Part shown: positions 8,113 through 54,848 of the stretch, piece after piece
Layout of the letters: every line of letters starts with the position of its first letter
Numbering within the stretch: position 1 is the first letter of the stretch
NCBI GenBank assembly: GCA_018829565.1
Contig: JAHJTW010000061.1
Location: 119-64,118, forward strand
Source of the DNA: a bacterium
GTDB taxonomy: Bacteria; Krumholzibacteriota; Krumholzibacteriia; LZORAL124-64-63
Direction of reading: 5' to 3'
DNA: 64,000 nt
The notes under the pieces: model-generated
The model's input: only the letters and a program-made list of their open reading frames with translations
Database searches by the model: none
Told to the model about the DNA's origin: nothing
Program-made: the position numbers and the translations under genes

Positions 8113-8124
8113 CCTCCTGACAAG

Positions 8125-8787: not shown

Positions 8788-8790
8788 TCT

Positions 8791-8804
8791 TGAATACCTA
8801 TTCA
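8791..8804. promoter_or_regulatory. candidate FadR operator (autoregulatory site)
   Basis: TGAATACCTATTCA, a 6+2+6 palindrome abutting the fadR ATG. It shares TGAAT..ATTCATTA with the site at 8951. Confidence 0.45.
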
Positions 8805-8861
8805 TTAGGCCGGACAGGGCCGGCCGAAGAGGCAAACCCGCTTCCCGAATTGCGCTTTCGG

Positions 8862-8890
8862 ATTATAAACGGCAATAATCAGTGAAACAA
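8862..8890 (-). promoter_or_regulatory. candidate fadR promoter
   Basis: On the minus strand: TTGTTT (8890-8885), 17 nt, TATAAT (8867-8862). Confidence 0.4.
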
Positions 8891-8919
8891 GCGGTATTCC
8901 CGAAAATCCCCCAAAGCGA

Positions 8920-8948
8920 TTGACACCCTGACCGATTCCCGTTAAGAT
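8920..8948 (+). promoter_or_regulatory. sigma70-type promoter of the fadN-fadA-fadE operon
   Basis: TTGACA (8920-8925), 17-nt spacer, TAAGAT (8943-8948). Confidence 0.65.
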
Positions 8949-8950
8949 AC

Positions 8951-8964
8951 TGAATGATCATTCA
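8951..8964. promoter_or_regulatory. candidate FadR operator overlapping the fadN transcription start
   Basis: Perfect 14-bp palindrome TGAATGATCATTCA, 2 nt downstream of the -10 element. Confidence 0.55.
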
Positions 8965-9044
8965 TTAATCTGCGAATCCGTGAACCCGTGCGGTCCGGTT
9001 AGGCCGCACCTTCAAGGTGTTTCGACCCTGGAAAGGCAGAGCCC

Positions 9045-11417: not shown

Positions 11418-11435
11418 CGGGAAAAGGAGACCAAG

Positions 11436-12620: not shown

Positions 12621-12662
12621 CCGCCGGGGCGGGGCCCCGCGACGTTCAAAGGAGAACCGACG

Positions 12663-38101: not shown

Positions 38102-38587
38102 ATGGATGATGACCGGAAAAAGCCGCAGCCCAGTCTGCCCGATGAGGATGAACTGCGCAAGGGGCGCAAGTTCGACCTGAGCGAAGCCGTGGCCCGCGAT
38201 GCGGGCCAGGCCCTCAAGGGCGCCTCGCCCGTCGCCGCCCACGACCAGACCGTTTTCGCCGCACGCGAGCTGATCGAGGCCGGTCTTCACGATCCGGAGG
38301 GATCGTTGCAGCGCACGCTGGTCAGCCGTCTGGATACAGACAAGCCACTCGTCGCAGCCCACTTCAACGACGCCGCAGCTCTGCTGCGGCAATTCCTGGC
38401 CCGGATCCTCGGATCGGACGCCGCCCTCGCGGACCTCGTCCGGGATGTCGATGCCCGCTGGGGCCGCGAATACCAGGAACGCCCCCACTTCGAGACCGGT
38501 GGTTCGGAACCTCACCCCGACGATCCCTACACGCTGCAGGGCGTCAACGACGCCCTGCAGCATTTCCGGGAAGCACTCGACTCTTAA
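38102..38587 (+). CDS. hypothetical protein (161 aa)
   Basis: The in-frame C-terminal part of track ORF 37550..38587, starting MDDDRKKPQPSLPDEDELRKGRKF. The codon pattern is plausible and the upstream part of the ORF is antisense to the methyltransferase. No recognisable motif. Confidence 0.5.
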   Translation: MDDDRKKPQPSLPDEDELRKGRKFDLSEAVARDAGQALKGASPVAAHDQTVFAARELIEAGLHDPEGSLQRTLVSRLDTDKPLVAAHFNDAAALLRQFLARILGSDAALADLVRDVDARWGREYQERPHFETGGSEPHPDDPYTLQGVNDALQHFREALDS

Positions 38588-40353: not shown

Positions 40354-40549
40354 GTATGCACGTCTCCGGTAGGGGCCGGCTCGCCGGCCGGATTGCTTCG
40401 CATCCATCCCACCGATTGTAACCGTTGCCCCGGGCCCAGGCCAGATGAAAGCCCCCGCGTGAAGCGTGGGCGAACCTGCACCGGGTCGGCATCATGCTCC
40501 GTCACCCAAAACGGACTGACCATCACCCGGCGTTTCTGACCGGGCCGGG

Positions 40550-41224
40550 TCAGGGAACGGCCCTCTCCATCCTCAGGGCCAGGTCGACCAGATCATCGAG
40601 GGCCCTGGCCCCCCCCGTCGAACCGGCCAGCACCGCCGCCTGACCCGGCGCCAGGCTCACGACCGCCGGCGTCGCCGTCGCCCGGGATTCGTACTCGGCC
40701 AGCGCGGCCAGCACCTCCGGCGTCGCCGTCGCCCGCGCTCCGTCCGGATCCAGGGATTGCAGCTGATACCTGTCCGCGTAGGGTGAGTCCACGAGTTCCA
40801 CGCGATCGCTGATCATGAATTCCAGGAAGCCGCGACCGATGATGTCCAGCTGCGCCTTGACCTCGGTGAACCGGTCGGATTCGATCAGGCAGACCACCCC
40901 GTTCGAGTAGGGACGGCCCGCCGCCTCCTCCCGGAACTTGTACCTGACGTCGCACAGGTAGATGGACCTCGCTCCTTGCTCCACGATCCGGACGTTGTAC
41001 AGGTCGTAGTTCCTCAGTCCCCACAGGGCGGGGGCGAATCGCGCCTCGAGGCCGAGCTCGTCCTGGGCTGCGAATCCCCAGCCGCGGGCTCGGGCGATCG
41101 CCTCGGCGGCCGCCTCCTGGCGGCGGGACATCCAGGCCGAAAGGGAAAACGTCACCACCACGAAGGCGATCACGCCCAGGACGATGAGCAGGATCTTGAT
41201 CTTCGCCCATTCCGGCCCGCTCAC
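40550..41224 (-). CDS. membrane-anchored hypothetical protein, paralog of 21942-22607
   Basis: GTG at 41224 overlaps the upstream stop (GTGA). N-terminal TM KILLIVLGVIAFVVVTF, then ARARGWGF, NGVVCLIESD, DSPYADRYQLQSLD, colinear with the LemA-linked protein. Confidence 0.6.
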   Translation of the reverse strand: MSGPEWAKIKILLIVLGVIAFVVVTFSLSAWMSRRQEAAAEAIARARGWGFAAQDELGLEARFAPALWGLRNYDLYNVRIVEQGARSIYLCDVRYKFREEAAGRPYSNGVVCLIESDRFTEVKAQLDIIGRGFLEFMISDRVELVDSPYADRYQLQSLDPDGARATATPEVLAALAEYESRATATPAVVSLAPGQAAVLAGSTGGARALDDLVDLALRMERAVP

Positions 41225-41766
41225 GCGCCCGCCCCCATGGACAGCCGCAGGAAGAAGTTCACGATCGCCCCGATGGCCAGGATCGCCCCAAGCACGATCC
41301 CCAGCACGGCCTTCACCGTCTGCAACTGGTGGGGCCGCATGAAGATCAGATGGTGATTCTCGTCGCCCGGGCGGGCCTCGCCGAGGCCGCCGGTCACCAG
41401 GGTGTAATCTCCCGCGTGAGGAACATCGAAGGTCCGGTCCGAGATCCGCACGAGGGACGTCCCCGCGCTGCGGTTGCGCATGAGGACCGGACTCCCTTTC
41501 ATCATCGTCCCGTCGCTGCCGTGCAACTCGAAGGTCAGATCCTTGAAACGGGAGGTCAGCTGCGGACCCTCGAGCCACAGGACGACCTTGCCTGCCTCCG
41601 GGATTGCGAGGCGCTGCTCGGCGACCAGGGGCAGCCGGCCGATCCGGTTGCGCTCTCCCAGCTTCGAGGCCGTCGCGATGAAGGTCCAGAGCAGGAAGAT
41701 CCCCAGGGCCAACAGAGGCCAGGACAACCACAGACCGTTCCGGTAGATGGACATCAGGACGGGCAT
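41221..41766 (-). CDS. hypothetical membrane protein (TM at both ends)
   Basis: 181 aa: LWLSWPLLALGIFLLWTFIA ... beta-rich middle ... AVLGIVLGAILAIGAIVNFF. Coupled to the downstream gene. Confidence 0.55.
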   Translation of the reverse strand: MPVLMSIYRNGLWLSWPLLALGIFLLWTFIATASKLGERNRIGRLPLVAEQRLAIPEAGKVVLWLEGPQLTSRFKDLTFELHGSDGTMMKGSPVLMRNRSAGTSLVRISDRTFDVPHAGDYTLVTGGLGEARPGDENHHLIFMRPHQLQTVKAVLGIVLGAILAIGAIVNFFLRLSMGAGA

Positions 41767-41796
41767 GCGCGACCTCCGGGTCAGGGCGACCAGGAC

Positions 41797-42096
41797 TCAA
41801 TCCAGGGCGTCGTTGAAGTAGGATCGATGGGCGGGACAGCGGCACCTCTTGTCCCAGGGCCGCTCGCAACCTCGGATGATGCCGACCTGGGCGTCCCCCA
41901 CGGACCGCGAGAGCGGGCCCGAAGTCTTCATGGTCTCAATGCCCGTGAAGTCGTCCCACCACGTGGCCAAAGTGAAGACATCGCAGACCGGACATAGGAA
42001 ATAGGAGTCGGTGACCTCGTCGCCCATGATGCTGCCGGACATGGAGGCGATCCGGTCCTCGTCGGCGAAGGTGCGGTTGCACTGGAGGCACTGCAT
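41797..42096 (-). CDS. small Cys-rich (zinc-ribbon-like) hypothetical protein
   Basis: MQCLQCNRTF...FLCPVCDV...GCERPWDKRCRCPAH. The ATG at 42096 has GGGAG upstream; an alternative GTG lies at 42141. Confidence 0.5.
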   Translation of the reverse strand: MQCLQCNRTFADEDRIASMSGSIMGDEVTDSYFLCPVCDVFTLATWWDDFTGIETMKTSGPLSRSVGDAQVGIIRGCERPWDKRCRCPAHRSYFNDALD

Positions 42097-42238
42097 GAGG
42101 AGCGGCTCCCGGTCCAGGGTGGAACGCCGGGAATCTATCACGCCGCACGGGGTTCAAACAATATTGCCTTTTCATTTCTCGGCGGATCCTGCCGATTGCG
42201 GTTATCATTGCCCCGGAGCCCCCAACCCAGGAGCCGAG

Positions 42239-42580
42239 ATGTCACCCCGCAATCCCCGCAACAAGAAGATCGGCCGCCCCCGTCCCGAGCGCATCCCCAC
42301 GCAGGAGGAGATCGCCCGGAAGGTGAAGAGCCTCAAGCATCTTTCCAAGCCAGGCTTCAACTACCGGGAGCGCTCCCTCGAACTGCACGGGATGATCTGC
42401 GCCAAGTGCGGGCGCGAATTCACGCAGAAGGACAAGCATCTGCTGACCGTCCACCACATCGACGGAAACGATGCGAACAACCCCACCGACGGCTCCAACT
42501 GGGAGAACCTGTGCGTCTACTGCCACGAGGCGGAGCACAGCCGCGGCATGCTGGGGGACTACCTGACCGGCCGGGATTGA
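42239..42580 (+). CDS. yajD: YajD-like HNH nuclease
   Basis: RBS CAGGAG. CAKCGREF...LTVHHIDGNDANNPTDGSNWENLCVYCHEAEHS parallels E. coli YajD (LTVHHIDHDHTNNPEDGSNWELLCLYCHDHEHS). Confidence 0.85.
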   Translation: MSPRNPRNKKIGRPRPERIPTQEEIARKVKSLKHLSKPGFNYRERSLELHGMICAKCGREFTQKDKHLLTVHHIDGNDANNPTDGSNWENLCVYCHEAEHSRGMLGDYLTGRD

Positions 42581-42652
42581 GGCGCCACCATTTTCTTTGA
42601 CCTGGCCTCCCCCAGGGGTTTTGATTCTCCCACTTCAACCGGGAGGCTGCCC

Positions 42653-44581
42653 ATGTCCACGATCCGATCCACCTTCGCCCTGATCCTGATGCTCCTGATC
42701 CTGCCCTCGGCCGCCATGGCGTCCGACCTTCCCGCCTACACGCCCGACGCCAACGCCCCTCGCAGCGCCGTGCCCGAGGTGTACAAGTGGGACCTCACGG
42801 CCCTTTTCGCCACGCCGGAGGCGTGGCGCGAGGAGGTGGCCGCCCTGCAGGAACGGGTGCCCGCACTGCAGGCCTATCAAGGCAAACTCGCTGATCCCTC
42901 CGCCCTCAAAAACTGTCTCGACCTCTACTTCGCCCTGCACGACCGCGCCAGCTGGATCACCCAGTACGCCAACCTGGCCCTCGATTCGGAACTGACGGAC
43001 GAGGCCCTTCAGGCCCGCAGCCAGCAGGGACTGGCCGTCATGGACGAGCTCATGGCCGCCGCCGGGTTCATCAGGAGCGAGATCCTGGCTCTGGACGAGC
43101 GGACGCTCCAGGTGGCCTATGACGACCCTGCCGGCCCCGGCGAGTACCGCAAGTACATCGACAACCTGCGCCGGCGCGCCTCACGCATCCTGGGCGATGA
43201 AGCCGAGCGCGTCCTGCAGCTGGCCGGCGACAACCTGTGGGCCGAGATCGACCTCAACGAGATCCCCAGCCCGCTGGAGGATGCCTTCGGCGCCGTCCTG
43301 TCGGACATCACCTGGCCGGTGATCCACGACACCGAGGGCAACGAGGTGCAGCTGACCCTGTCCAACCTGGGCCGCTTCCGGGCCTCGCCGGACCGCGCCG
43401 TGCGCGCCGAGACGATGGCCGCCTTCTTCGCCACCCTGCGGCAGTTCCAGCACGCCCTGGCCGCCACCCTGGCCGGCCAGTTCAAGCTGGACGTGCTTTT
43501 CGCCCGGGCCCGCGGCTACGACACCGCGCTGGAAGCCTACCTGGACAAGGACAACATCCCGGTCAACGTCCACGACAACCTCATCGCCGCCGTGAACGCC
43601 AACCTGGAGCCCCTGCACCGGTACGTGGAACTGCGGCGGCAGGTCATGGGCCTGGACACCGTGCACGTCTACGACCTGTACGTCCCCCTGGTGGCCGCCG
43701 CGGAGATGGACGTGCCCTACCCCCGGGCCATGGAGATCCTGCCCGAAGCCCTGGCCCCCCTGGGCCCGAAGTACGTCGAGCGGCTGCGCCACGGGCTGGA
43801 CCCACGCAACGGCTGGATCGACGTCTATCCCAGCGATGACAAGGACAGCGGGGCGTTTTCGGCCAGCGTGTACGGCGCCCACCCCTACGTGAAGATGAAC
43901 TACCAGGACAGCCTCGACGACCTGTCCACCCTGGCCCACGAGTACGGCCACGCCCTGCACAGCGACCTGGCCATGAGCCGCCAGCCGTACCAGGACCACC
44001 GGTACGTCCCGTTCCTGGCGGAGATCGCCTCGACCTGCAACGAGATGCTGCTGTCGGATTACCTGGTGCAAACGTCCGAGTCGAAGGAGCAGAAGGCGGG
44101 CATCCTGGCCGCGGAACTGGAGAGCATCCGCACCACCATCTACCGGCAGACCCTGTTCTCGGAGTTCGAGCGGAAGGTTCACGGCTTCGTGGAATCGGGG
44201 ACGCCCATCACCGCCACCCTGCTGGACGAGACCTACGCCGGGCTGGTCCGCACCTACTACGGCCCCGGGTTCACGGTGGACGCGAACGACGGCATGGAAT
44301 GGGCCTACATCCCCCACTTCTACTACAAGTACTACGTGTACGCCTACGCGACGGGGCTCAGCAGCGGCATGGCCATCGCCGAGCGGGTGAAGGAGCTGGG
44401 ACAACCCGCCGTCGACGGGTACCTGGCCATGCTGGAAGGGGGATGCAGCGAACCGCCGCTGGATCTGCTGAAGCTCGCGGGCGTGGATCTGACGAGGCCG
44501 ACGGCCATCGAGGCCGCGCTGAAACGGTTCGACCGGACCGTCACGGAGCTGGCCGGAGTGCTCGGAGTGGACGTCCCCTAG
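42653..44581 (+). CDS. pepF: oligoendopeptidase F (M3B), secreted
   Basis: Signal peptide. HEYGHALH zinc motif. M3B-typical length of 642 aa. Confidence 0.85.
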   Translation: MSTIRSTFALILMLLILPSAAMASDLPAYTPDANAPRSAVPEVYKWDLTALFATPEAWREEVAALQERVPALQAYQGKLADPSALKNCLDLYFALHDRASWITQYANLALDSELTDEALQARSQQGLAVMDELMAAAGFIRSEILALDERTLQVAYDDPAGPGEYRKYIDNLRRRASRILGDEAERVLQLAGDNLWAEIDLNEIPSPLEDAFGAVLSDITWPVIHDTEGNEVQLTLSNLGRFRASPDRAVRAETMAAFFATLRQFQHALAATLAGQFKLDVLFARARGYDTALEAYLDKDNIPVNVHDNLIAAVNANLEPLHRYVELRRQVMGLDTVHVYDLYVPLVAAAEMDVPYPRAMEILPEALAPLGPKYVERLRHGLDPRNGWIDVYPSDDKDSGAFSASVYGAHPYVKMNYQDSLDDLSTLAHEYGHALHSDLAMSRQPYQDHRYVPFLAEIASTCNEMLLSDYLVQTSESKEQKAGILAAELESIRTTIYRQTLFSEFERKVHGFVESGTPITATLLDETYAGLVRTYYGPGFTVDANDGMEWAYIPHFYYKYYVYAYATGLSSGMAIAERVKELGQPAVDGYLAMLEGGCSEPPLDLLKLAGVDLTRPTAIEAALKRFDRTVTELAGVLGVDVP

Positions 44582-45015
44582 CCCTCGCCCCACTGTCGCC
44601 GCACCTGTTCCCTGATCGATCCCTGCTGGGCGTCGGTCAGGGGACAGGTGGGCGAGTTCGCCGTCGTCGTGTCACGATTCTCGATCACCAGCACCGAGCC
44701 CTCGGCGTCCAGCGTGTGGGTGTGCCAGACGCCCCGCTTCACGTTGTAGAGCTTCAAGGGTTCGAGATCCACCGCGTGGACGGCCCCGGCATCCTCGCGC
44801 CCGCTGCCGTCCCCGACGAACAGGATGCAACGGCCGCCCAGCAGGACGAAGACCTCGTCGGTCTCGTCATGCCTCTGCATGGTCGTCAGGTTCTCGGGCA
44901 ACAGGTCCGGGATGAAGTTGAGGACCGCCACCCGCCAGGCCTGGAAATCCACCAGGGGCCGGTACCCGGGGCCGTCGTACGAAGTGATTTCGATCAGGGC
45001 GGGGTCGATGGGCAT
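44578..45015 (-). CDS. cupin-fold protein
   Basis: MPIDPALIEI...MQRHDETDEVFVLLGGRCILFVG...GVWHTHTL is a cupin His/Glu pattern. Only the last 145 codons of track ORF 44578..45345 are used. Confidence 0.6.
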   Translation of the reverse strand: MPIDPALIEITSYDGPGYRPLVDFQAWRVAVLNFIPDLLPENLTTMQRHDETDEVFVLLGGRCILFVGDGSGREDAGAVHAVDLEPLKLYNVKRGVWHTHTLDAEGSVLVIENRDTTTANSPTCPLTDAQQGSIREQVRRQWGEG

Positions 45016-45100
45016 GGGGCGACGATCCTTCCGGTTGGGACAACGCCTGCGAAGGTAACACCCCGATCCCTCGTTGTCCGGCGGGAAAATGGCCGTCCCC

Positions 45101-45985
45101 TCAGCGCAGCTTGAGCCTGCGCCCCACCTTGAGGGCGGTCTTGACGGGCTTGCGGTTGGCGATCCTCTGCAGGGAATGGAGGATCCCCCCGAGCCGCCGC
45201 GTCCGCTCCAGGTCGGCCTGGAAATCTTCCCCCTCCGCTCCAATCCGGCGCTCCAGGCGCTCACCAACGAAGGCGACCAGCTGAAGGTCGAGATGGTTGA
45301 GCTGCCGGATGCGCTCGGCCAGGCCGCCGGGCAAGCCCGGGCCATCCTGCCGGGGCCGGGAAAAGTCGACGTTCCTGCGGGGATAGGCGACCCTGCCCCA
45401 GCCCAGCGCGCGTTTCATCAGGACCACCGACTCGTCGAATCGCTCCTGAAGGCCCGCCACCAGAAAGTGGTCCTCGAGGTTGGCCTGGGCCCGCCGCAGG
45501 GCTTCATCGGGCAGGGGTTCGGGGTAGGGAGACAGCGGATGCTGGAAGTCCACCCAGCCGGAGATCAGCCGGGTCTGGAAGTTGAGGGCGTTCCGTTCCT
45601 GCTGGAAGTCCAGGAACGCCTCCAGGGACTTCAATCTCCCGGCGGGAATGCCCATCTCCTCGGCCCGCTCGGGCCTCCGCACGAGGTTGTGGTACTTGGA
45701 CACCGTCCGCTGGACCGGATCCCGCAGGATGGTGATGTAATCGCATTCCCGCCCGATGAACCGGTCCAGTCCGTAGGGCATGTGCCCCCGGAAACAGAGG
45801 GCGCCGTCGGTCCGGTCGGGGGTCAGGGAGGCCAGGACCTCGGGGGCGTCGGGGCGGTGCAGGTCGCAGATGACCGTCCGGGACCGGGGATACTCCCTCG
45901 CGAGGATGGCATGCAGGGTCGAACCTGCCGCCTTGGGGATGTGCACGAAGACCACCGGCCTGGTCTGCTGTCGCCTGTCCGTCAC
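45101..45985 (-). CDS. sulfotransferase family protein
   Basis: VVFVHIPKAAGSTLHAIL is the PAPS 5-prime-phosphosulfate binding loop of family-2 type sulfotransferases, followed by ITILRDPVQRTVSKY. Confidence 0.7.
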   Translation of the reverse strand: MTDRRQQTRPVVFVHIPKAAGSTLHAILAREYPRSRTVICDLHRPDAPEVLASLTPDRTDGALCFRGHMPYGLDRFIGRECDYITILRDPVQRTVSKYHNLVRRPERAEEMGIPAGRLKSLEAFLDFQQERNALNFQTRLISGWVDFQHPLSPYPEPLPDEALRRAQANLEDHFLVAGLQERFDESVVLMKRALGWGRVAYPRRNVDFSRPRQDGPGLPGGLAERIRQLNHLDLQLVAFVGERLERRIGAEGEDFQADLERTRRLGGILHSLQRIANRKPVKTALKVGRRLKLR

Positions 45986-45998
45986 GCCCTCCGCCCCT

Positions 45999-47120
45999 TC
46001 AGTAGTTGTAGTCCAGGTCGGTGTCGGCCCGGGTCATCAGCAACCTCGTCGAATGTTCGAAGTGCTCCTGCAACGGCGCGTGTTCGGGTCTGCAGCCGCA
46101 ATGCCCGGTGATCCAGGCCCTGGCCGAGGTGAACAGGTAGCCGTTGTTCCGCAACATCCGGCGGAATCCCCGGTGATTGGAGATGGTGCAGGTGGCCTCG
46201 GCCACACCCCGGCTCCTGAACCAGGAGTCGGCCGCCTCCAGCAACCGGTTGGAAAGGGCCCTGTCATCCTGGGACGCCATCAGATCCACGACGAACCCGC
46301 GGCGGAGCGGACCCGCATCCTCCTCCCGCACGATCACGTATCCCGCCAGGCGTCCGGACCGGCGGGCGGCCAGGGTCGTGTATCTGCGGTTGGGACAGTC
46401 CCGGAAACGCCAGTTCAGGAAGGCCCGGTCCCGGACGGCCACCATGGCGAAGGTGGGTGCGATCTCCTCCCAGAGATCGTCGAACTCCGGGCCGAAGTCG
46501 CCGACCTCCTCGATGGTCGCCGACCGGTCCACCGGCCCCCGCAGGACCAGACGCACCAGGCCGGAGGCCAGGGAAATCGGTGCGGTGCCCAGGACGGCCA
46601 GGACGGGATTCATCCCCTGGGCGCGCAGGAACCGCAGGGGGCGCAGCATCCGCTTGCAACTGACCAACCTGGTGATCTCGAAGGCCCCGAACTTGATGGG
46701 CAGCCTGGCGAGATCGTACGAGCTGGCGGTGCCTGCGATGAGCTTCTCGGACCCTGAGGCGATTTCCAGGAAGAAACGGTACCCCTGGGGGCGGTGTTCC
46801 TTCAGGAGGGCCAGCTCCGAACCCCAGGCGATGGGGAAGATCCGGTCGTCCACCTTCATCCAGGTGGAGAGCAGGCCCAGGAATCCCACCGGTTCGCCGT
46901 CGCAGGTCATGACCATGGAGTTGTGGCCGCCCGGCAGGTGGTGGGGATTCCGGTCGTACTTCCAGGACCAGGTGCGGGCCATGTCCGCGCGGAAGTCCCC
47001 GCCCCAGATCTCGCCCAGGATGTCCAGGAGCTTCTCGCGATCCTCGGGGAGGAAGCGCCGCATCGCATAGACGCCCGGGGCCGCGGTTTCATTCCGCACC
47101 GGACGGACCTCGCCCAGCAT
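45999..47120 (-). CDS. tandem GNAT-fold acyltransferase
   Basis: Two GNAT-like halves (…EPVGFLGLLSTW…HRPQGYRF… and …GYVIVREED…FVVDLMAS…WFRSRGVAEA…). The start overlaps the FAAL stop (TGATG). Confidence 0.6.
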   Translation of the reverse strand: MLGEVRPVRNETAAPGVYAMRRFLPEDREKLLDILGEIWGGDFRADMARTWSWKYDRNPHHLPGGHNSMVMTCDGEPVGFLGLLSTWMKVDDRIFPIAWGSELALLKEHRPQGYRFFLEIASGSEKLIAGTASSYDLARLPIKFGAFEITRLVSCKRMLRPLRFLRAQGMNPVLAVLGTAPISLASGLVRLVLRGPVDRSATIEEVGDFGPEFDDLWEEIAPTFAMVAVRDRAFLNWRFRDCPNRRYTTLAARRSGRLAGYVIVREEDAGPLRRGFVVDLMASQDDRALSNRLLEAADSWFRSRGVAEATCTISNHRGFRRMLRNNGYLFTSARAWITGHCGCRPEHAPLQEHFEHSTRLLMTRADTDLDYNY

Positions 47121-48883
47121 CAGCCCGCACCCAGGATCTCGAGCCCTCCGGCGAGATACAGTTCGCGGCTTTCCCCCCGCCTGATCTTGCCGCTGGAGGT
47201 GCGCGGAATGCCGCCGGGCTTGACCATCACCAGGTCGTGGAGCTGGAGTTCGTGATCCAGGGCGACCTGGTCCCGCACCGCAGAGAGGATCTGCCCGGCC
47301 AGTTCACCGTCGGCCTCGGATCTCAGGCGGTGGAAGAAGGAGCGGCTCACCTCTGCCACGACGACCAGCTTCTCCTGTTCGCCGTCGTCGACGGCGAAGG
47401 CGGCGGTGCCGTTGGCGGCGATCCCCTCGTGCGCCTCCTCCACGCTCAGCTCGACGTCGTTGGGATAGTAGTTGCGGCCCCGGATGACGATCAGGTCCTT
47501 CAGCCGGCCGGTGATGAACAGCTCGCCCCCGCGCAGGAAACCAAGGTCTCCGGTCCGCATGAACGGGCCGCGTCCGGTGTCCAGCCGGGCCCCGAAGGTC
47601 TCCCGGCTTCCGGCCTGGTCGTTGAAGTAGCCGCGCGCGACGCTTTCCCCGCCGACCCAGATCTCTCCGATCTGCGAATCTGCGCACACCGCTGCGCTTT
47701 CCGGTTCCACCACGAGGACCTCGAGGTCGGTGGCAGCCCGCCCGCAGCCCACCAGCTGGCGGGAACCCGCACCGGGCAGGCGCCGGGTCTGGATCCGGTT
47801 TTCGGTCAGCGCCCCGCCGTCGACCCTCACGATCTCCGGCTGCCGGGGACGCGGCCCGCCGGTGGCGATCAACGTCACCTCGGCGAGACCGTAACAGGGA
47901 AAGAAGGCCTCCTTGCGGAATCCGTACCGCTCGAAGGCCTTCGCGAAGCGTTGGAGGGTGCCGGCCCGGACCGGCTCGGCGCCCACGTACGCCACCTGCC
48001 AGCAGGAAAGGTCGAGATCGAGCCCCCCATCCGCCGCCGCAGCGGCCTGGGCGCACAGATCGAAGGCGAAGTTGGGTCCCCCGCAGGTCGTTCCCCGGTA
48101 CCGCGAGATGGCCTCGATCCAGGCGAGGGGCCGCTTGAGGAACGCCAGCGGAGGGATCAGGTAGGTCGCGCCGCCGGCGTAGACCGGCTGCAGGAGGTTG
48201 CCGAGCAGGCCCATGTCGTGGAAGACCGGCAGCCAGGCCACGCCGACCAGGTCGGAGTCGTGCTCCATGGACTCGAGAATGGCCCGCTCGTTGTGCATGA
48301 TGTTGCCGTGGCTGACCATCACGCCCTTGGGCGCGGCGGTGCTGCCGGACGTGTACTGCAGGAAGGCGATGGCCTCCGGGGGGAGGGGGACTTCCCGCCA
48401 GGCGTCGGCGCCGTCGGGACCCACGGCATCGGTGGCGATCACGGCCATCGCACCCGGCGCCAGCTGGTTCACCATGGCCTCGACGCCCGCGGCCACCTCG
48501 GCCACGGTCAGGATCGCAGCCGGGCCGCAATCCTTCACGATCCCGATGAGACGGCCGTCCAGCTGGTTCTTGCGGGGAGGATAGGCCGGCACCGCGATCA
48601 TCCCCGCATAGAGGCAGCCGAAGAAGGCCGCGGCGAATTCCAGGCCGGGCGGGTAAAGCATGAGCATCCGGCTGCCGGGCTTGAACCGCTCCTGGAGGGC
48701 GGCGGCGATGGCCCGGGCCGAGGTGTCGAGCTGCGCGTAGCTGAGGCCGTCGGCCTCGTTCACGCCGTCCCGCAGGAAGCCGTAGACCTGTTTCTCCGGA
48801 GTCTCGTGCGCGCGGCGTCGCAGGACGGCCGCCAGGTCCCCCTCCGGCGGGTTCAGGTCGGGACGCGGGGCGGGCAGACTCAT
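47120..48883 (-). CDS. fatty acyl-AMP ligase (FAAL)
   Basis: LSYAQLD..ARAIAAAL, MLMLYPPGLEFAAAFFGCLYAGMIAVPAYPP, YTSGSTAAPKGVMVSHGN, GDLGF..GELFITGRLKDLIVIRGRNYYPNDVE. ATGA coupling to the ACP gene. Confidence 0.85.
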   Translation of the reverse strand: MSLPAPRPDLNPPEGDLAAVLRRRAHETPEKQVYGFLRDGVNEADGLSYAQLDTSARAIAAALQERFKPGSRMLMLYPPGLEFAAAFFGCLYAGMIAVPAYPPRKNQLDGRLIGIVKDCGPAAILTVAEVAAGVEAMVNQLAPGAMAVIATDAVGPDGADAWREVPLPPEAIAFLQYTSGSTAAPKGVMVSHGNIMHNERAILESMEHDSDLVGVAWLPVFHDMGLLGNLLQPVYAGGATYLIPPLAFLKRPLAWIEAISRYRGTTCGGPNFAFDLCAQAAAAADGGLDLDLSCWQVAYVGAEPVRAGTLQRFAKAFERYGFRKEAFFPCYGLAEVTLIATGGPRPRQPEIVRVDGGALTENRIQTRRLPGAGSRQLVGCGRAATDLEVLVVEPESAAVCADSQIGEIWVGGESVARGYFNDQAGSRETFGARLDTGRGPFMRTGDLGFLRGGELFITGRLKDLIVIRGRNYYPNDVELSVEEAHEGIAANGTAAFAVDDGEQEKLVVVAEVSRSFFHRLRSEADGELAGQILSAVRDQVALDHELQLHDLVMVKPGGIPRTSSGKIRRGESRELYLAGGLEILGAG

Positions 48884-49218
48884 GCGATGGACCTGCCCAG
48901 ATCCAGCTTGCCGACCAGGAATTCCACCAGAGAATCGATGGTCGGGTAGTCCCACAGCAGGGTCGGCTCGAGCTCGACGCCCAGGGACTTCTCCAGCAGA
49001 CCGGTGAACTTCATCGCCTGCAGGGAATCGAATCCGAGCTGGGCGAAGGTCTTGGCGGTGTCGATGTCCTGCGGGGCCACCTGGGCCAGACCGGCGACCG
49101 CCGTCACCAGACCCCTGCGGACCTCATCCTCGCTTCGCGGCATGCGGTCGAAGACCAGGCCTTTCTTCCGGCGTCCCAGCCCCACCACCGAAAGCACTTT
49201 CGTTACCATTGCACCCAT
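48880..49218 (-). CDS. acyl carrier protein
   Basis: GAGGAG RBS. FAQLGFDSLQAMKF is the phosphopantetheine Ser motif. Only the last 112 codons of track ORF 48880..50073 are used. Confidence 0.85.
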   Translation of the reverse strand: MGAMVTKVLSVVGLGRRKKGLVFDRMPRSEDEVRRGLVTAVAGLAQVAPQDIDTAKTFAQLGFDSLQAMKFTGLLEKSLGVELEPTLLWDYPTIDSLVEFLVGKLDLGRSIA

Positions 49219-49268
49219 TCGGATCTCCTCGGTTGGACCGGCACGCAGGCCGGCGGGTATGCGCCGCC

Positions 49269-50231
49269 TCAGGCGACGGCGCGATCGTCGCCCAGCGCTG
49301 CCTTGCGCTTGTCTTCCGGCGTCTCCACCACGTTCCAGACCAGACCGACGGCCTTGAGCATCCGGATCACCAGGGCTCCCAGATCGGGCTCGTACCAGCG
49401 GAAACCGTGAAAGGCGTCCCGCGGAAACGCGTGGTGGTTGTTCTGCAGTCCCTCGCCGCAGCCGACCAAGGCCACCAGCAGGTTGTTGGTGCTGTGGTCC
49501 CGGGTGCGGTGCACGTAGGGGCGCAGGCCGACCATGTGGCAGATCGAACCGACGCACCACAGCACGTGATCCACCACGCAGATCCGGACCAGGCCGCCCC
49601 ACAGGAATCCCAGGAACGCTCCCTGCCACGAACCCGCGATGAGGCCCCCGGCCACCGTCGGCAGGAGCAACCCCAGGAAGAAGAAGGGGAAGTAGAGCTG
49701 ATGGATCCTGAACACCTGCCGGTCGTTCATCATGTCCCGCGCAAACATCCCCCAGTTGCTGATCCGGTCGGAGAACATCCAGGCGATGTGGCCCTGCCAG
49801 AATCCCTTGATCACCCGCCACAGGCCCGATCCCTCGACGAGCTGGGGCGAATGGGGATCGCCCTCCTGGTCGCTGAGCCGGTGGTGGCGGCGATGGGTGG
49901 CCACCCACCAGATGATCGGCCCCTGACCCGCCATGGATCCCAGCGCCCCCAGCACCATGCGCATGGCGGGACTGGTATCGAAGGACCGGTGGGCAAAATG
50001 GCGGTGGAATCCCACCGTCAGTCCCATGACCGTCAGCAGGTATCCCGTCAGGAAGATGCCGATCTCCATCCACCCGATTCCCTGGGTGAAGGCCAGATAG
50101 ATGGCCAGGATGGTGGCGAGGAAAGGCACGACGATGATCAGCCCCGCGACCGTCCGCAGACGGCGCCGCTCGGTCGGACCGGCCACCGTATAGGGCGACA
50201 TGTCCAGGCCGGGCATGGTTTCGTTGGCCAT
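49269..50231 (-). CDS. membrane fatty-acid desaturase (Delta9/stearoyl-CoA desaturase family), copy 1
   Basis: Three His boxes: HRHFAHR, HRRHH, HNNHHAF. Four hydrophobic spans. Confidence 0.85.
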   Translation of the reverse strand: MANETMPGLDMSPYTVAGPTERRRLRTVAGLIIVVPFLATILAIYLAFTQGIGWMEIGIFLTGYLLTVMGLTVGFHRHFAHRSFDTSPAMRMVLGALGSMAGQGPIIWWVATHRRHHRLSDQEGDPHSPQLVEGSGLWRVIKGFWQGHIAWMFSDRISNWGMFARDMMNDRQVFRIHQLYFPFFFLGLLLPTVAGGLIAGSWQGAFLGFLWGGLVRICVVDHVLWCVGSICHMVGLRPYVHRTRDHSTNNLLVALVGCGEGLQNNHHAFPRDAFHGFRWYEPDLGALVIRMLKAVGLVWNVVETPEDKRKAALGDDRAVA

Positions 50232-50234
50232 GAG

Positions 50235-51185
50235 CTAACCCTCCACGGAAGGAGACATGCCGGCGTCAGGCCGGCGTTGACCCTTGAACGACGCGGCGTC
50301 CGGGTAATGGACGTCCCAGGCCAGGTGAGCCCGATCCAGGATCCGCACGATCAGCCCGCACACGTCCAGCTGCCACCAGTGCAGCCGGTTGTCCGCCGCC
50401 CTGGGAAAGGCATGGTGGTTGTTGTGCCAGCCGCCCCCCAGCGAGGGCAAGGCGATGATCGCCAGGTTGCGGCTCTGCTCCCGGGTGGGAAAGGGCCGGC
50501 TGCCGAAACGGTGGCAGAGGGAGTTGACCCCCCAGACGGCGTGGTGCACGAGGAAGATCCTGCCCAGTCCCCCCCAAAGCAGGCCCTTGAACGCACCGAT
50601 CACCGTCCCGTAGTGCAGCAGACCGGCCGCCGCCGGAATCGCCAGGCCGAGAAGCATCCAGACGAAGTAGAGCTGGTTGAGCCGGAACAGCCGGGAATCC
50701 TTGACCAGATCGGGGATGTACCGCAGCCAATCCGACTGGACGGGCTGGAAGAGCCAGCCCATGTGGGCGTGGAACAGACCAGCCAGCCACCCCCGGAAAC
50801 CGGAACCGCTCAGACACGGTGAATGGGGGTCGCCCTCCTGGTCCGAGAAGGCGTGGTGACGCCGGTGGGTGCTGGCCCAGTAGAGAGCCGGCCCCTGGGC
50901 GGCCATGGATCCGAGGACGACCAGGGCGCCTTCGATGAAACCCGTGGTCCGGAAAGCCCGGTGCGAAACGTAGCGATGGAGACCCAGTTCGACCCCGATC
51001 ACCGTCAGGAGGTACATCACCAGCAGGAGAACCCAGTCGAAGGTGGTGACCCCCGTCTCGAAGGCCAGCCAGACGGCCGCGAGGGCGCCGGCGGCAGGCG
51101 TCCACACCACCCCGTGGGTGATGAGGGCCATGGCGCGGCGGCCGGCGGCGTTGGTTTCGAGGGCGCCTGATCCGTTGGATTGCAT
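50235..51185 (-). CDS. membrane fatty-acid desaturase (Delta9 family), copy 2
   Basis: His boxes HRYVSHR, HRRHH, HNNHHAF. ATG at 51185 with GGAGAG upstream. 3-nt gap to copy 1. Confidence 0.85.
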   Translation of the reverse strand: MQSNGSGALETNAAGRRAMALITHGVVWTPAAGALAAVWLAFETGVTTFDWVLLLVMYLLTVIGVELGLHRYVSHRAFRTTGFIEGALVVLGSMAAQGPALYWASTHRRHHAFSDQEGDPHSPCLSGSGFRGWLAGLFHAHMGWLFQPVQSDWLRYIPDLVKDSRLFRLNQLYFVWMLLGLAIPAAAGLLHYGTVIGAFKGLLWGGLGRIFLVHHAVWGVNSLCHRFGSRPFPTREQSRNLAIIALPSLGGGWHNNHHAFPRAADNRLHWWQLDVCGLIVRILDRAHLAWDVHYPDAASFKGQRRPDAGMSPSVEG

Positions 51186-51262
51186 GGAATGGCTCTCCGG
51201 AAGCCTGGAAATCGTGAATATCGTCCCCCACACCGACCCGACCCTGACTTTGATTCGGGATT

Positions 51263-51285
51263 AATCATATCCTTTTTATATGATT
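51263..51285. promoter_or_regulatory. AT-rich palindrome upstream of the desaturase operon (candidate operator)
   Basis: AATCATAT-7 nt-ATATGATT. Confidence 0.3.
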
Positions 51286-51301
51286 TTGGCTATCAAAATT
51301 A

Positions 51302-51425
51302 TTGTGCCGTCGAAATTGTGCTTCCCCAAAAAATGACCGCATATTCAGTATGTGGGGTCAATAATTTGAATATTTTCTCAAGTATTTGCCCGATTATTCG
51401 GCCGAACACAGTTTCGACGGCACAA
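51302..51425. repeat. 124-bp AT-rich unit bounded by 19-bp inverted repeats
   Basis: TTGTGCCGTCGAAATTGTG (51302-51320) versus CACAGTTTCGACGGCACAA (51407-51425). 18/19 bases are complementary, with a perfect 14-bp core. Confidence 0.7.
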
Positions 51426-51433
51426 CCCCGGCG

Positions 51434-52138
51434 TCAGCGGGAGGGAAAAAGTGCCACCAATTCCCCGATTCCGTCGATCACCAGGTCCGGCCCCGCCGCC
51501 CGGATCAACCCCGGCGCCGTCAACCCGTAGGTACACCCCACCGAGACCGCCCCGAAGGCCCGGGCTGCGTTGATGTCGTTGGGGCTGTCCCCCACCACGA
51601 CGATCTCGGCGGCGGGAACGTCCAGCCCCGCGGTCAACTGCCGGAGATGCCCGGGATCGGGCTTGATCGCCGGAGTCTCGTCCCCGGCCACGACGTTCCG
51701 GAAGGCGTCCTTGATGTTCAGCCCCTGCAGGATCCGGTCGGTGAATGACCGGGGCTTGTTGGTGGCAAGGAGCAGGGGAAAGGACCGGAAGTGCATCAGG
51801 ACGTCCAGCACGCCGGAGTACAGACGGGTGTTGTCCAGGAGGTGGCGGCCGTAGTGGTCGCGGAAGACCCCCAGACCCTCCTCCAGCTTTTCGGGGGACA
51901 CCGGCAAGCCGGCGTCCCCCGTCATTCCGCTGCGCACGTCGTGGCCGAGCATGCGCTTCATCAGGTTCACCACGCCGTCGCCCACATACCCCTGGGCGTT
52001 CTGCACCGGTAACTCCGGCAGGCCGAAGTGCGCCCGCACGAAGTTGGCCGACACCGCGATGTCGAGACCCGAGTCGACCAGAGTGCCGTCCAGGTCGAAG
52101 ATGAAGGCGGCGGCGCGGCGTCCCTTGAACTTGCCCAT
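51434..52138 (-). CDS. HAD-superfamily phosphatase (phosphoglycolate phosphatase-like)
   Basis: FIFDLDGTLVDS (motif I), LATNK, VVGDSPNDI. Confidence 0.8.
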   Translation of the reverse strand: MGKFKGRRAAAFIFDLDGTLVDSGLDIAVSANFVRAHFGLPELPVQNAQGYVGDGVVNLMKRMLGHDVRSGMTGDAGLPVSPEKLEEGLGVFRDHYGRHLLDNTRLYSGVLDVLMHFRSFPLLLATNKPRSFTDRILQGLNIKDAFRNVVAGDETPAIKPDPGHLRQLTAGLDVPAAEIVVVGDSPNDINAARAFGAVSVGCTYGLTAPGLIRAAGPDLVIDGIGELVALFPSR

Positions 52139-52145: not shown

Positions 52146-52541
52146 CTACCCCGCGATCACGCGGGCCTTGTAACCGTAACGGATGACCTCCCACGCCGGC
52201 CCGTGCTGCAAGCGGCGGAAGACGATCTCCACCTCGGTGCCGATGTCGACCTCGTCGGGCGGCGCCTCGCTGATCATGACGGTCAGGCGCACCCCGTTCT
52301 CCAGCTCGACGATGGCGTTGACGTAGGGTTTCTGGTCGTCGAACTCCGCGGGCGGAATCCACACCGTGGTGCAGGTGACGACCTTGCCGCGCCGCGGCAG
52401 CTCGACGGTTTCGAACTCGCGGGCGAAGCACTTGCGGCAGACCTTGCGCGGGGGGAAGTGGATCTCGCCGCACTTGGTGCACTTGCCGGCCTCCAGGCGG
52501 TAGCGCTGGGGCTTTTCCCGGTGATAACGCGGACTGATCAT
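52146..52541 (-). CDS. DUF35 OB-fold/zinc-ribbon protein (thiolase-HMGCS scaffold)
   Basis: [18 protein letters not shown] zinc ribbon followed by an OB-fold. ATGA overlap with the thiolase gene. Confidence 0.85.
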
Positions 52542-53695
52542 TGTTCCACCTCCAGGATGTGCACGGTGCAGCTGCCGCCCGATCCGCCCATGTTCTGGGC
52601 CAGGCCGCGCCGGGGGTTCTTCAACTGGCGCCCACCGGCGTTGCCGGTGAGCTGGGCGTAGAGCTCGCAGATCTGGGCGATTCCCGTGGCCCCCACCGGA
52701 TGACCCTTGCTCTTAAGGCCGCCCGAGGTGTTGACGGGGAACTCGCCGTCGCGCGCGGTCTTGCCGGCTGCGGCCGCGGGCCCGCCCTGGCCGGGCTCGA
52801 AGATCCCCAGTTCCTCGGTGCAGACGATCTCGGCGATGGTGAAGCAGTCGTGGACCTCGGCGAAATCGATGTCCCGGATGGTGAGTCCTGACTGCTTGAA
52901 CGCTCGCTGCGCAGCCAGCGCCACCACCGGAATGGTCGAGGGGTCCTTCCGGTCGTGCAAGGCGATGGCGTCGGTGGCATGTCCCGAACCGATGATCTTC
53001 ACCACCGGCTTGCCCAGCTTGCGCGCGAACTCCACCGGAGCCAGCAGGACGCAGGCCGCCCCGTCGGTCACCGGCGAGCAGTCGAACAGACCCAGGGGCT
53101 CGGCCACCCGGACGGCGCCCAGCACCGTCTTCTCGCTGATCTCCAGGGGGAACTGGGCCTTGGGATTCTTCGCGCCGTTGCGGTGGTTCTTCACCGCGAC
53201 CGCGGCCAGCTGCTGGGGCGTGGTGCCGTGCTTGGCCATGTGCGCCTTGGCGATCATGGCGTACAGGCCGGGGAAGGTGACCCCGTTGTAGGCCTCGTAT
53301 TCCTGATCCGCGGCGGTGGCCAGACAGTAGGTCGCGTCGGCCCCGTCGTTCATCTTCTCCACGCCGCCGGCCAGGACGAAATCGCTGGCTCCGCTGGCCA
53401 CCTCGAGGTAGGCCGCCCGGAAGGCGGCGCCGCCCGAGGCGCAGGCCGATTCGACCCGGGTGGCCGCCAGACCCCGCAGCCCCGCATAATCGCAGAGCAC
53501 CGACGCCAGGTGTTCCTGGCCCACGAACAACCCGCTGGTCATGCATCCGATGTAGGCCGACTGCACCTGGTCCCGGGCCACGCCCGCATCCTCCAGACAG
53601 TCGGCGCAGGCGATGGCGAACAGGTCCCGCAAGGAGGTATCCCAGAGTTCCCCGAAGGGCGTCAAGCCCATGCCGATGACAGCAACGTCTCTCAT
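52538..53695 (-). CDS. archaeal-type acetoacetyl-CoA thiolase
   Basis: [44 protein letters not shown]. 385 aa, SCP-x-like thiolase class. Confidence 0.85.
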
Positions 53696-53708
53696 GTCGT
53701 CCTCCTTT

Positions 53709-54758
53709 CTAGACCTCGTTCATGCGGATCTTGCCGCGGTATGCCACGTATTTTCCGTAACCGAGATGGATGCGGCGGTCGGCCAGCAGTCCGCGCACCG
53801 TGGGCGCCAGCCCCTGCACCTTGGGCAACCGGTCGGTGCAGCGCAGGATGAACGAGTCGCTGCCGGCGCCGCTGCCGAACGAGGTGATCAGGATGTGGTC
53901 GCCGGGCTTGGCCACGTCCAGACAGGCCGCCAGCCCGGTGGGCGAAGAACCGCTGTAGGTGTTGCCCATGAGGTTCACCACCCAGCCCTGCTCCATCTGC
54001 TCCTGGGTGAAGCCCAGGGTCTTGCCCGCCTTCAGGGGGAACTTCCCGTTGGGCATGTGGAAGACGGCGTAGCGGAAGTCCGCGGGCTCCATGCCGCTGC
54101 GGTCCAGGATGCCGCGAGTGGCGCTCAGCACGTGGTGGAAGTAGGCCGGTTCCCCGGTGAAGCGCCCGGCATGGCGGGGATAGAACTCCCCCTCGCGGCG
54201 CCAGAAGTCGGGCGTGTCCGAGGTGAACGAGTAGGTGTGCAGGATCTCGGCGACGAGATTGTCACCGCCCATGATGAAGGCCGAACCGCCCGCCGAGGCC
54301 GTGTATTCCAGGGCGTCGCCGGGCGCGCCCTGGCTGGTGTCGGCCCCGATGCCCAGGGCGTACTTCATCTCCCCGCTCTTGACGTGGCTGTAGGCCACGT
54401 ACATGGCCTCGCTGCCGGCCTTGCAGGCGAACTCGAAGTCGGCGACGTGGCATTCGGGGCCGATGCCCAGGGCGTCGATGACCACGGTCCCCGAGGGTTT
54501 CACGGCGTAGGGATGGCTCTCCGACCCGATGTAGCAGGCCCCGATCAGCTGGGGATCGATGCCCGCCCGCACCAGGGCGCTGCGGGCCGCGGCCACGCTG
54601 ATGGTGATGGTGTCCTCGTCGGGACCAGGAACGGTCTTCTCTTCAAGCAGGAGCCCCCGCTTGAAAGCCTCCGCATCCGCTCCCCACTGGTTCGCGATGT
54701 CCTCGGCCTTGATCCTGAAGCGCGGCACGTAAGCGCCATAACCCACAATCCCGTACAT
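53709..54758 (-). CDS. archaeal-type hydroxymethylglutaryl-CoA synthase
   Basis: [43 protein letters not shown]. 349 aa. GGAGAAGGAG RBS at 54767-54776. Confidence 0.85.
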
Positions 54759-54848
54759 GGTTGCCACTCCTTCTCCGTTAGGAAAAAAACACCGGGCGCG
54801 ATTGTACCAGCACCGCACCCGGAGCACAAGGCTGGCGAATGGACGTTT

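Follow-up and report, generated by a model that had tools for sequence, protein, structure and literature searches.

In a 64,000-nucleotide stretch of a Krumholzibacteriota genome (GenBank assembly GCA_018829565.1, contig JAHJTW010000061.1, positions 119 to 64,118; hereafter the window), six adjacent genes on the minus strand encode two membrane desaturases (des2 and des1), one acyl carrier protein (ACP), one fatty acyl-AMP ligase (FAAL), a tandem-GNAT protein of an unmodelled family and a sulfotransferase (ST). On balance, we favour reading these genes as a self-contained operon for a thiotemplated, tailored lipid, which would comprise acyl loading, desaturation, release by the GNAT protein, with a sugar as the most likely acceptor, and sulfation. 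The new part of the unit is the proposed release step by an uncharacterised tandem-GNAT family, while the front half is already known. A first-pass annotation of the same DNA had proposed that the FAAL loads the ACP, that two desaturases and a GNAT transfer follow and that the ST caps the product; this operon logic is supported, and it is strengthened by the conservation of the unit, by fusions of GNAT domains to carrier proteins and by fold predictions.

A conserved six-gene unit in Krumholzibacteriia

Between 44.5 and 51.5 kb, the minus strand carries seven open reading frames (ORFs), namely the six-gene unit and a small cupin gene, all with high third-position GC. The features of this region are the following:

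51186-51433, minus strand: AT-rich spacer of 248 nt; probably the promoter and 5′ leader for the six genes
50235-51185, minus strand: des2, ATG start, 316 aa; membrane di-iron acyl desaturase, clade A of the cassette desaturases
49269-50231, minus strand: des1, 320 aa; membrane di-iron acyl desaturase, clade B of the cassette desaturases
48880-49218, minus strand: ACP, 112 aa; dedicated acyl carrier protein with the attachment serine in GFDSL
47120-48883, minus strand: FAAL, 587 aa; fatty acyl-AMP ligase
45999-47120, minus strand: tandem-GNAT acyltransferase, 373 aa; unmodelled family, proposed ACP-dependent chain-release enzyme
45101-45985, minus strand: sulfotransferase, GTG start, 294 aa; dependent on 3′-phosphoadenosine-5′-phosphosulfate (PAPS), family 2 / Gal-3-O-sulfotransferase-like
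44578-45015, minus strand: small cupin, 145 aa; lineage-specific accessory, doubtful as a member of the unit

The six tightly spaced genes on one strand and their junctions, as given in the first-pass annotation, were borne out in the sequence. The des2 and des1 genes meet in TAG-CTC-ATG with a gap of 3 nt, the ACP and FAAL genes overlap by ATGA, the FAAL and GNAT genes overlap by TGATG, and 13 nt separate the GNAT gene from the ST gene. The junction of des1 and ACP, which was absent from that annotation, is a gap of 50 nt that carries a GAGGAG ribosome-binding site. The motifs listed there for the desaturases (His boxes), the ACP (GFDSL) and the ST (HIPKAAGST) are all present in the translations, and its statement that polyketide synthase (PKS), non-ribosomal peptide synthetase (NRPS), thioesterase and glycosyltransferase genes are missing holds for the entire window by family scans and tblastn. 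The spacer has a GC of 0.448 (core 0.354) versus 0.677 for the cluster, and it contains, 5′ of des2, the one sigma-70-like site found in 44300-51600 (51292-51264, minus strand). The related loci L001, L006 and L007 likewise keep 115-170 nt of spacer between HAD gene and des2. An Rfam scan of the whole window matched no family, and a terminator scan gave a number of sites not above chance.

Reading of the gene context of homologous loci showed that the order des-des-ACP-FAAL-GNAT-ST recurs at L001/L012, L005, L006, L007-L009/L011/L057 and L010, with cluster proteins 50-95% identical to those of the window, and that the unit is conserved in at least four further Krumholzibacteriia lineages and on at least five divergent contigs. 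At L001/L012, L006, L007-L009/L011/L057 and L010, the unit occupies the same chromosomal position, downstream of the genes for an HMG-CoA synthase, a thiolase, a DUF35 protein and a HAD protein. The closest relative is L010, a metagenome-assembled genome (MAG) named Candidatus Krumholzibacteriia bacterium, in which the same locus is found with a protein identity of 92-98%. If L010 is set aside, identity in the relatives is 50-75% for the cluster proteins and 82-89% for the flanking housekeeping proteins, with the HAD protein as an exception at 69-70%. The 4-nt overlap of ACP and FAAL is preserved in all relatives, and the GC of the cluster equals the genome background. Because synteny and overlap are conserved across the relatives and the cluster GC is at background level, the six genes are a real, conserved, operon-like unit that is vertically inherited in the class. 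Recent horizontal transfer was ruled out by the background-level GC and the class-wide conserved synteny. Homologous genes are co-localised in related genomes, which is the neighbourhood check that the first-pass annotation had proposed. A metagenome scan with the C-terminal motif of the GNAT protein gave just one further locus, from a lineage already found.

The cupin gene lies 85 nt downstream of the ST gene, as had been noted at first, but it is present in the window and L010 only and absent from L001, L005, L006, L007 and L011. Because it is restricted to L010 among the relatives, the cupin was placed outside the conserved unit and ruled out as a member of the pathway. Its matches to the ureidoglycolate lyase and WbuC models were weak, every one of them below the cut-off (Pfam, NCBIfam). 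The sequence downstream of the ST gene varies among the relatives.

The acyl-loading module and the tandem-GNAT protein

The His boxes are HRHFAH, HRRHH and HNNHH in des1 and HRYVSH, HRRHH and HNNHH in des2, and both proteins match PF00487 (FA_desaturase; 2.6e-17 for des2 and 1.5e-17 for des1). The des1 protein matches the SCD1 structure 4ymk (3e-23) and is 50-57% identical to many proteins named stearoyl-CoA or acyl-CoA (Delta9) desaturase by their sources. It is 39-47% identical to the desaturases of the FAAL-ACP cassettes on all four plasmids inspected among 184 matching plasmid records (Burkholderia gladioli, Polaromonas, Ralstonia and Streptomyces), whereas non-cassette acyl-CoA desaturases of Acinetobacter and Novosphingobium reach only about 27%. 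Every close des1 homologue whose context was read adjoins FAAL/ACP genes, on these four plasmids as well as at L048, L049, L050 and L060; the order is des-des-ACP-GNAT-FAAL at L048 and des-des-ACP-FAAL at L049 and L060. The ACP matches PF00550 (PP-binding, 6e-17) and is 34-41% identical to the ACPs of FAAL-desaturase cassettes, and the FAAL is 38-50% identical to the cassette FAALs. In addition to an AMP-binding match, the FAAL is matched by the NCBIfam FAAL and FadD32 models (5e-130 and 8e-124), in agreement with its initial description as FadD32-like. Its best PDB match is 7r7e (2.5e-157), a chain whose deposited name is 'Polyketide synthase'; FadD32, FadD23 and FadD28 come next, and the FAAL-specific insertion is present as judged against a FACS-like enzyme.

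That a FAAL loads a dedicated ACP and that desaturases act on the ACP-bound chain was shown experimentally by Kim et al. (PMC9828172), with further experimental precedent for both steps (PMC11837247), and JamABC-type thiotemplated alkyne and polyyne systems have been described (PMC8406139, PMC9828172). The first four genes of the unit are thus a known FAAL-ACP-desaturase module of this type and not a new combination. One of the four plasmid cassettes, L054 of Streptomyces goshikiensis, corresponds exactly to the polyyne cassette of seven genes as Mullins et al. 2021 (PMC8406139) defined it, with a FAAL, two desaturases, an ACP, a third desaturase, an alpha/beta hydrolase and a rubredoxin. A neighbour-joining tree of the desaturases (305 columns, 100 bootstraps) groups des1 with the second desaturase of this cassette (bootstrap 99), and des2 with its first desaturase, the desA of L048 and the desaturase half of a fusion protein at L050 (bootstrap 78), inside a cassette ingroup with a bootstrap of 88. 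Judged from this tree, des2 and des1 are orthologues of the adjacent desaturase pair of the polyyne cassette. The third polyyne desaturase (Strep_polyyne_des3) is about 18% identical to des1 and des2 and has no counterpart in the window, and no thioesterase, alpha/beta-hydrolase or rubredoxin ORF was found in or beside the unit. With two desaturases only and neither a thioesterase nor a rubredoxin, the unit is not a polyyne cassette, although it uses the same thiotemplated desaturation module.

The first-pass annotation had not recognised the gene combination as a described pathway. This no longer holds for the FAAL-ACP-desaturase part, but it stands for the complete set, as a combination of FAAL, desaturase and ACP with a GNAT or a sulfotransferase was not found described in the open-access literature. 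Two desaturases are present as that annotation stated, but its 'doubly desaturated' chain is too specific because triple bonds are possible in orthologues of the polyyne type. No signature in the sequence is known to us by which acetylenase activity could be told from desaturase activity.

The relatives of the module differ in what accompanies it. At L050, a FAAL and a des2-clade desaturase are fused in an 891-aa protein (4333-7008). Other genes of this cluster are for two additional desaturases, an SDR, a PEMT/ICMT-like methyltransferase, a GT28 glycosyltransferase, a MacB-type ABC exporter and an ACP; the cluster is likely a glycolipid pathway built on the same desaturase pair. At L049 (3925-7194) and L060 (13433-16873), where des-des-ACP-FAAL stands apart from the GNAT-ST pair, the gene of a large S8 subtilisin-like peptidase follows. 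At L049, genes for a 4′-phosphopantetheinyl transferase and a small GNAT follow as well; the unit in the window contains no such transferase.

The 373-aa protein encoded behind the FAAL gave no match in Pfam, NCBIfam (E <= 0.01) or the PDB sequences, and models of the N-acyl amino acid synthase/OlsB type such as PF13444 do not match it. Faint matches to PF00583, PF13527 and PF13508 were all that its homologues showed, and no NCBIfam model matched any of the nine stand-alone relatives tested. An AlphaFold2 model made with an alignment of 14 homologues (pLDDT 89.9, pTM 0.88) was compared with the PDB by Foldseek, which returned the Eis-like tandem GNATs 2hv2, 3n7z and 2ozg (TM 0.56-0.59), N-myristoyltransferases and the tandem GNAT 2wpx of the clavulanate pathway, all with a probability of 1.0 and near full length (330-390 aligned columns). 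The initial label of tandem GNAT, to which sequence models contributed nothing, is correct as a fold according to the predicted structure. Profiling against the N-acyl amino acid synthase and Eis families, which had been suggested along with it, gave no match to a sequence model but an Eis-like fold.

The family is large. An exhaustive profile search at E <= 1e-3 collected 13,620 cluster representatives, of which 641 reach E <= 1e-30, and the impression of an extremely rare family, which came from 15 proteins in a word-indexed search, was discarded as an artefact of search sensitivity. In all nine multidomain relatives scanned, the GNAT domain is C-terminal and a carrier (PP-binding) domain lies 25-50 residues upstream of it. 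Their architectures are:

P0268 and P0283: FAAL-ACP-(KS-AT-KR-ACP)x2-GNAT
P0300 and P0323: PKS-C-A-PCP-GNAT
P0266 and P0301: KR-ACP-GNAT
P0274: A-PCP-GNAT
P0265 and P0307: ACP-GNAT

All nine come from MAGs or metagenomes and carry no informative names. The fused domains align over their full length with the window protein and have in common with it the motifs WKY, H109, FDxxW, VRDxxFLxWRF, GYxxxR, D279, D286 and the C-terminal TxADxDxD. The C-terminal position behind a carrier domain is normally occupied by a thioesterase. Because the GNAT domain takes this position in nine of nine fusions, the function we propose for the family is chain release from carrier proteins through acyl transfer. At L048, a GNAT homologue with 27% identity (hhalign probability 99.9%) is encoded between the ACP and the FAAL, with no ST present, and this is an independent link of the GNAT to the lipid module under another gene order. 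Use of acyl-ACP by enzymes of the GNAT fold is known as such, as in FeeM, OlsB and the lipolanthine GNAT (PMC11631085, PMC10088813), and no description of a GNAT domain for chain release or offloading was found in the open-access literature. Fibrobacteraceae-like genomes also contain a second, lone GNAT paralogue of 390-398 aa (L002 10001-11173; P0010, P0011), which has a C-terminal extension of about 30 aa and no adjoining ST, lipid or glycan genes.

Sulfotransferase, glycan context and the probable acceptor

The ST matches PF06990 with 39.0 bits (cut-off 27; 6e-10) and PF03567 with 22.2 bits (cut-off 22; 1.7e-4), and a protein of identical sequence is listed at NCBI as 'sulfotransferase family 2 domain-containing protein [bacterium]'. 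Its 5′-PSB motif HIPKAAGST (H15, P17, K18, G21) and its 3′-PB motif RDPVQRTVS (R88, P90, R93, S96; LRDPVQRTVS in the window) are invariant across 28 ST homologues. Across homologues, identity drops from about 60% to 44-49% for STs that adjoin a GNAT homologue and is at most 39% thereafter. The best folds for its AlphaFold2 model (pLDDT 89.8) are heparan sulfate 6-O and 2-O sulfotransferases (TM about 0.5), with cytosolic SULTs clearly weaker, and none of the top 50 fold matches is described as a curacin or olefin-synthase sulfotransferase. These matches place the ST in family 2 / Gal-3-O-like and mark it as carbohydrate-type.

In two assemblies, GCA_054043445.1 and GCA_054043845.1 (L003/L004 and L058), the GNAT-ST pair is located at the end of a glycan cluster that encodes Poly_export, a GH42-like protein, MurJ, a polysaccharide deacetylase, Wzy, GT2 and a second ST (Sulfotransfer_1/3). 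Both share synteny with a MAG that bears the title uncultured Fibrobacteraceae (L013, L059), and both contain des-des-ACP-FAAL on other contigs (L060, L049). The locus L005 has des-ACP-FAAL-GNAT-ST followed by genes for a GH42-like protein, MurJ, Sulfotransfer_3, GT2 and GT1, and its glycan genes are orthologous to those of L003 with 34-48% identity. Of 35 distant stand-alone GNAT homologues, which come from other phyla, 14 lie no more than 10 kb from GT1, GT2, deacetylase, MurJ or Wzy genes, several of them directly adjacent, and 3 have an AMP-binding enzyme nearby. The GNAT-ST pair is a module of its own, and in the lineage of the window the GNAT and the ST joined the lipid operon without the glycan genes. 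Because the pair sits in glycan clusters and the ST looks carbohydrate-type, a sugar-bearing acceptor is favoured.

The proposed pathway runs as follows. The FAAL adenylates a free long-chain fatty acid and loads it on the dedicated ACP, as its strong homology to characterised systems shows. The desaturases des2 and des1 would then place at least two unsaturations, double or triple bonds, on the chain, and their orthology points to action on the ACP-bound form. The tandem GNAT, in place of the thioesterase or PKS of known cassettes, would move the chain from the phosphopantetheine thioester of the ACP to a nucleophile, as the fusions and the gene context indicate, and the acceptor would most likely be an amino sugar or another sugar-bearing or glycan intermediate on the cytoplasmic side. 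The ST, assigned to family 2 by its sequence, would finally use PAPS to sulfate the conjugate, and the product would be a sulfated glycoconjugate bearing an unsaturated acyl chain.

Other readings of the same genes were weighed against this pathway. The first-pass annotation had let the GNAT N-acylate a small amine or amino acid and the ST cap a hydroxyl or amine, and the resulting sulfated lipoamino acid or N-acyl amine would act as an aminolipid of the membrane or as a surfactant, without any sugar. This is unlikely in our view, though a serious contender: no glycan genes lie close to the unit in the window and its close relatives, acyl-ACP-dependent N-acyl amino acid synthases with a GNAT fold are established (FeeM, OlsB; PMC11631085), the fold search returned N-myristoyltransferases, which acylate a peptide amine, and L048 joins the lipid genes to a GNAT with no ST and no visible glycan genes. 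The missing match to synthase and OlsB-type models, the recurrence of the GNAT-ST pair inside clusters with Wzy, MurJ, GT2 and deacetylase, and an ST that is nearest to polysaccharide O-sulfotransferases and farther from small-molecule SULTs nevertheless speak for a sugar. It is improbable that the GNAT and the ST are an exopolysaccharide-decorating pair with a common donor such as acetyl-CoA that merely stands beside an unrelated FAAL-ACP-desaturase module. The pair does occur without adjoining lipid genes (L003/L004 and L058), and the distant GNAT homologues are mostly found in glycosyltransferase-rich loci. However, the FAAL and GNAT genes overlap, their adjacency is kept in at least five lineages at 50-60% identity despite the variable sequence downstream of the ST, the GNAT homologue of L048 is inserted between ACP and FAAL, the domain directly follows a carrier protein in every fusion, and the genomes that have the pair in a glycan cluster also encode des-des-ACP-FAAL. 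An exopolysaccharide origin of the GNAT and the ST, which the first-pass annotation had named as a scenario that would refute its operon, is correct in that the pair belongs to a glycan module in other genomes, but it points to a sugar acceptor and not to independence from the lipid genes.

Ordinary membrane-lipid housekeeping, with Delta9-type desaturases and an acyl-ACP synthetase that recycles exogenous fatty acids, would agree with the similarity of des1 to named stearoyl-CoA and acyl-CoA desaturases, with the background GC of the cluster and with the position of the unit among housekeeping genes. It is made very improbable by the FAAL/ACP cassettes in which all close homologues of known context reside, by the dedicated ACP, by a FAAL that is not an Aas-type enzyme, by the coupled GNAT and ST, and by cluster proteins that evolve faster than the flanking genes. 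The least credible reading is a sulfotransferase like that of CurM or the olefin synthases, for which sulfate on an ACP-bound hydroxyl is a leaving group and the product an alkene or hydrocarbon. A FAAL-ACP pair with an ST is indeed the olefin synthase architecture (PMC11837247), and the best PDB match of the FAAL was deposited as a polyketide synthase, but the unit has neither KS and KR for a beta-hydroxyl nor a TE, the ST belongs to family 2/Gal-3-O with heparan sulfate and cytosolic sulfotransferases as its folds, and it travels with glycan genes. A bacterial ceramide-type pathway (ACP, acyl-ACP synthetase and GNAT ceramide synthase) was considered as well and dropped, as the window has no serine palmitoyltransferase-like gene.

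Several points weigh against the pathway with a sugar acceptor that we favour. Neither the 64-kb window nor the 20-kb flanks of the unit in Krumholzibacteriia relatives contain glycosyltransferase, flippase, deacetylase or PAPS-synthesis genes; glycan genes were sought in the window through tblastn searches that used the proteins of L003 and L005 and through Pfam scans covering about 47 ORFs. The unit has no gene for an electron donor such as a rubredoxin. The co-occurrence of both modules in one genome is based on two related MAGs, and the donor and acceptor of the GNAT are read from fusions and gene context. GNAT folds can also be decarboxylases or O-/S-acyltransferases. The desaturase tree is distance-based, and its polyyne reference L054 is defined by its architecture and is not an experimentally studied cluster, so that the likeness to JamB, TtuB, Pgn and Cay was drawn through this reference and not by direct sequence comparison.

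A wider prediction can be made, which we hold as tentative and rather doubtful. The 373-aa protein may represent a widespread, undescribed class of release domains, recognisable by WKY, VRDxxFLxWRF and TxADxDxD, that would pass acyl or peptidyl chains from carrier proteins to a sugar or an amine. It might couple alkyne/polyyne-type desaturation to glycan chemistry in Krumholzibacteriia and Fibrobacteraceae-like bacteria, and the product might be a sulfated en/yne lipo-glycoconjugate, similar to a Nod factor in its logic, in uncultured bacteria of the FCB group.

If the favoured pathway is true, the alkyne/polyyne-type desaturation module would not be limited to antibiotic-like free acids or to PKS/NRPS starters but would also feed sulfated conjugates, in an uncultured phylum without described lipid chemistry. 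An unmodelled family of thousands would at the same time gain a testable function in release from carrier proteins, which is relevant to natural-product enzymology and pathway engineering. The six-gene unit is compact enough for heterologous expression.

Surroundings of the unit and comparison with known systems

Directly upstream of the unit, after the HAD hydrolase gene (51434-52138), lies a trio of genes for an HMG-CoA synthase-like protein, a thiolase and a DUF35/OB-fold (ChsH2-like) protein (52146-54827, minus strand). The trio is syntenic and 82-89% identical in all Krumholzibacteriia relatives other than L010, and its arrangement is of the archaeal type with which the mevalonate pathway starts. 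On the other side, a variable insertion (40408-45015) separates the ST gene from a conserved gene for a 607-aa protein with a Fer4 domain (38584-40407). The insertion holds the cupin gene, an M3 oligopeptidase gene (42653-44581, plus strand), an HNH endonuclease gene (42011-42580) and two small ORFs without a family match. At L001, the Fer4 gene follows 117 nt after the ST gene, and at L006/L007 a gene for a 401-aa protein without a Pfam match intervenes. A second HNH endonuclease gene, with a DUF222 domain, is present at 29311-30417 (minus strand), and the two HNH genes may be markers of mobile or variable spots in the window.

Farther away, the region 2001-6000 has a GC of 0.61-0.62 compared to about 0.67 elsewhere. 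A 785-aa protein encoded at 2923-5280 has a C-terminal FlgD_ig domain, of a type seen on secreted proteins in related loci. The gene at 5791-8112 encodes a quinol-type nitric oxide reductase (NorB with a cytochrome c-like domain), and it is followed, within 5791-14453, by genes for a TetR regulator and for a set of beta-oxidation enzymes (FadB-like, thiolase and acyl-CoA dehydrogenase) that could possibly be a source or a sink of free fatty acids.

Compared to known systems, the unit differs from the ST-TE module of CurM and the olefin synthases in that KS, KR and TE are absent. It is similar to JamABC and TtuABC in its stand-alone FAAL, its dedicated ACP and an SCD-like membrane desaturase, which would also in the window act on the ACP-bound chain, and in the adjacent and co-oriented genes (PMC8406139; PMC10088813); furthermore, des1 and des2 belong to the clade of cassette desaturases, apart from the non-cassette acyl-CoA desaturases. 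The JamABC/TtuABC cassette has one desaturase and passes the chain to a PKS/NRPS, whereas the unit has two desaturases followed by the tandem GNAT and the ST. The JamABC/TtuABC cassette makes an alkyne, which is only a possible product of the unit in the window. The cassette has been reported from Proteobacteria, Cyanobacteria, Planctomycetes and Tectomicrobia and not from Krumholzibacteriota, the phylum of the window. With the polyyne cassette (cay, pgn, ccn and col; FAAL, ACP, three desaturases, thioesterase and rubredoxin), the unit has the thiotemplated logic and, through L054, the orthologous desaturase pair in common, but it is without the third desaturase, the thioesterase and the rubredoxin, and the hydrolytic release of that cassette would be replaced by acyl transfer.

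The tandem GNAT has the GNAT fold of FeeM, OlsB, LuxI and the lipolanthine GNAT and would, like these, take a long acyl chain from a phosphopantetheine thioester, and its tandem architecture resembles N-myristoyltransferase and Eis. However, it matches no model of FeeM, OlsB, LuxI, N-myristoyltransferase or Eis, has its own motifs WKY, VRDxxFLxWRF and TxADxDxD, and belongs to a family that occurs also as the terminal domain of PKS/NRPS proteins.

In the assembly of Nod factors, NodFE provides a special acyl-ACP, NodC is the GT2 glycosyltransferase, NodB the deacetylase, NodA the N-acyltransferase and NodH the sulfotransferase. No protein of the window is of a Nod family, the window encodes neither GT2 nor a deacetylase, its chain would be made by a FAAL and desaturases and not by a ketosynthase, and NodA is of a different fold family from the window GNAT. 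The likeness of the proposed pathway is one of logic and not of homology, with a dedicated ACP that carries an unusual unsaturated chain, N-acyl transfer to a sugar amine and PAPS-dependent sulfation, and the glycan clusters that hold the GNAT-ST pair in other genomes do encode GT2, a polysaccharide deacetylase and a second ST.

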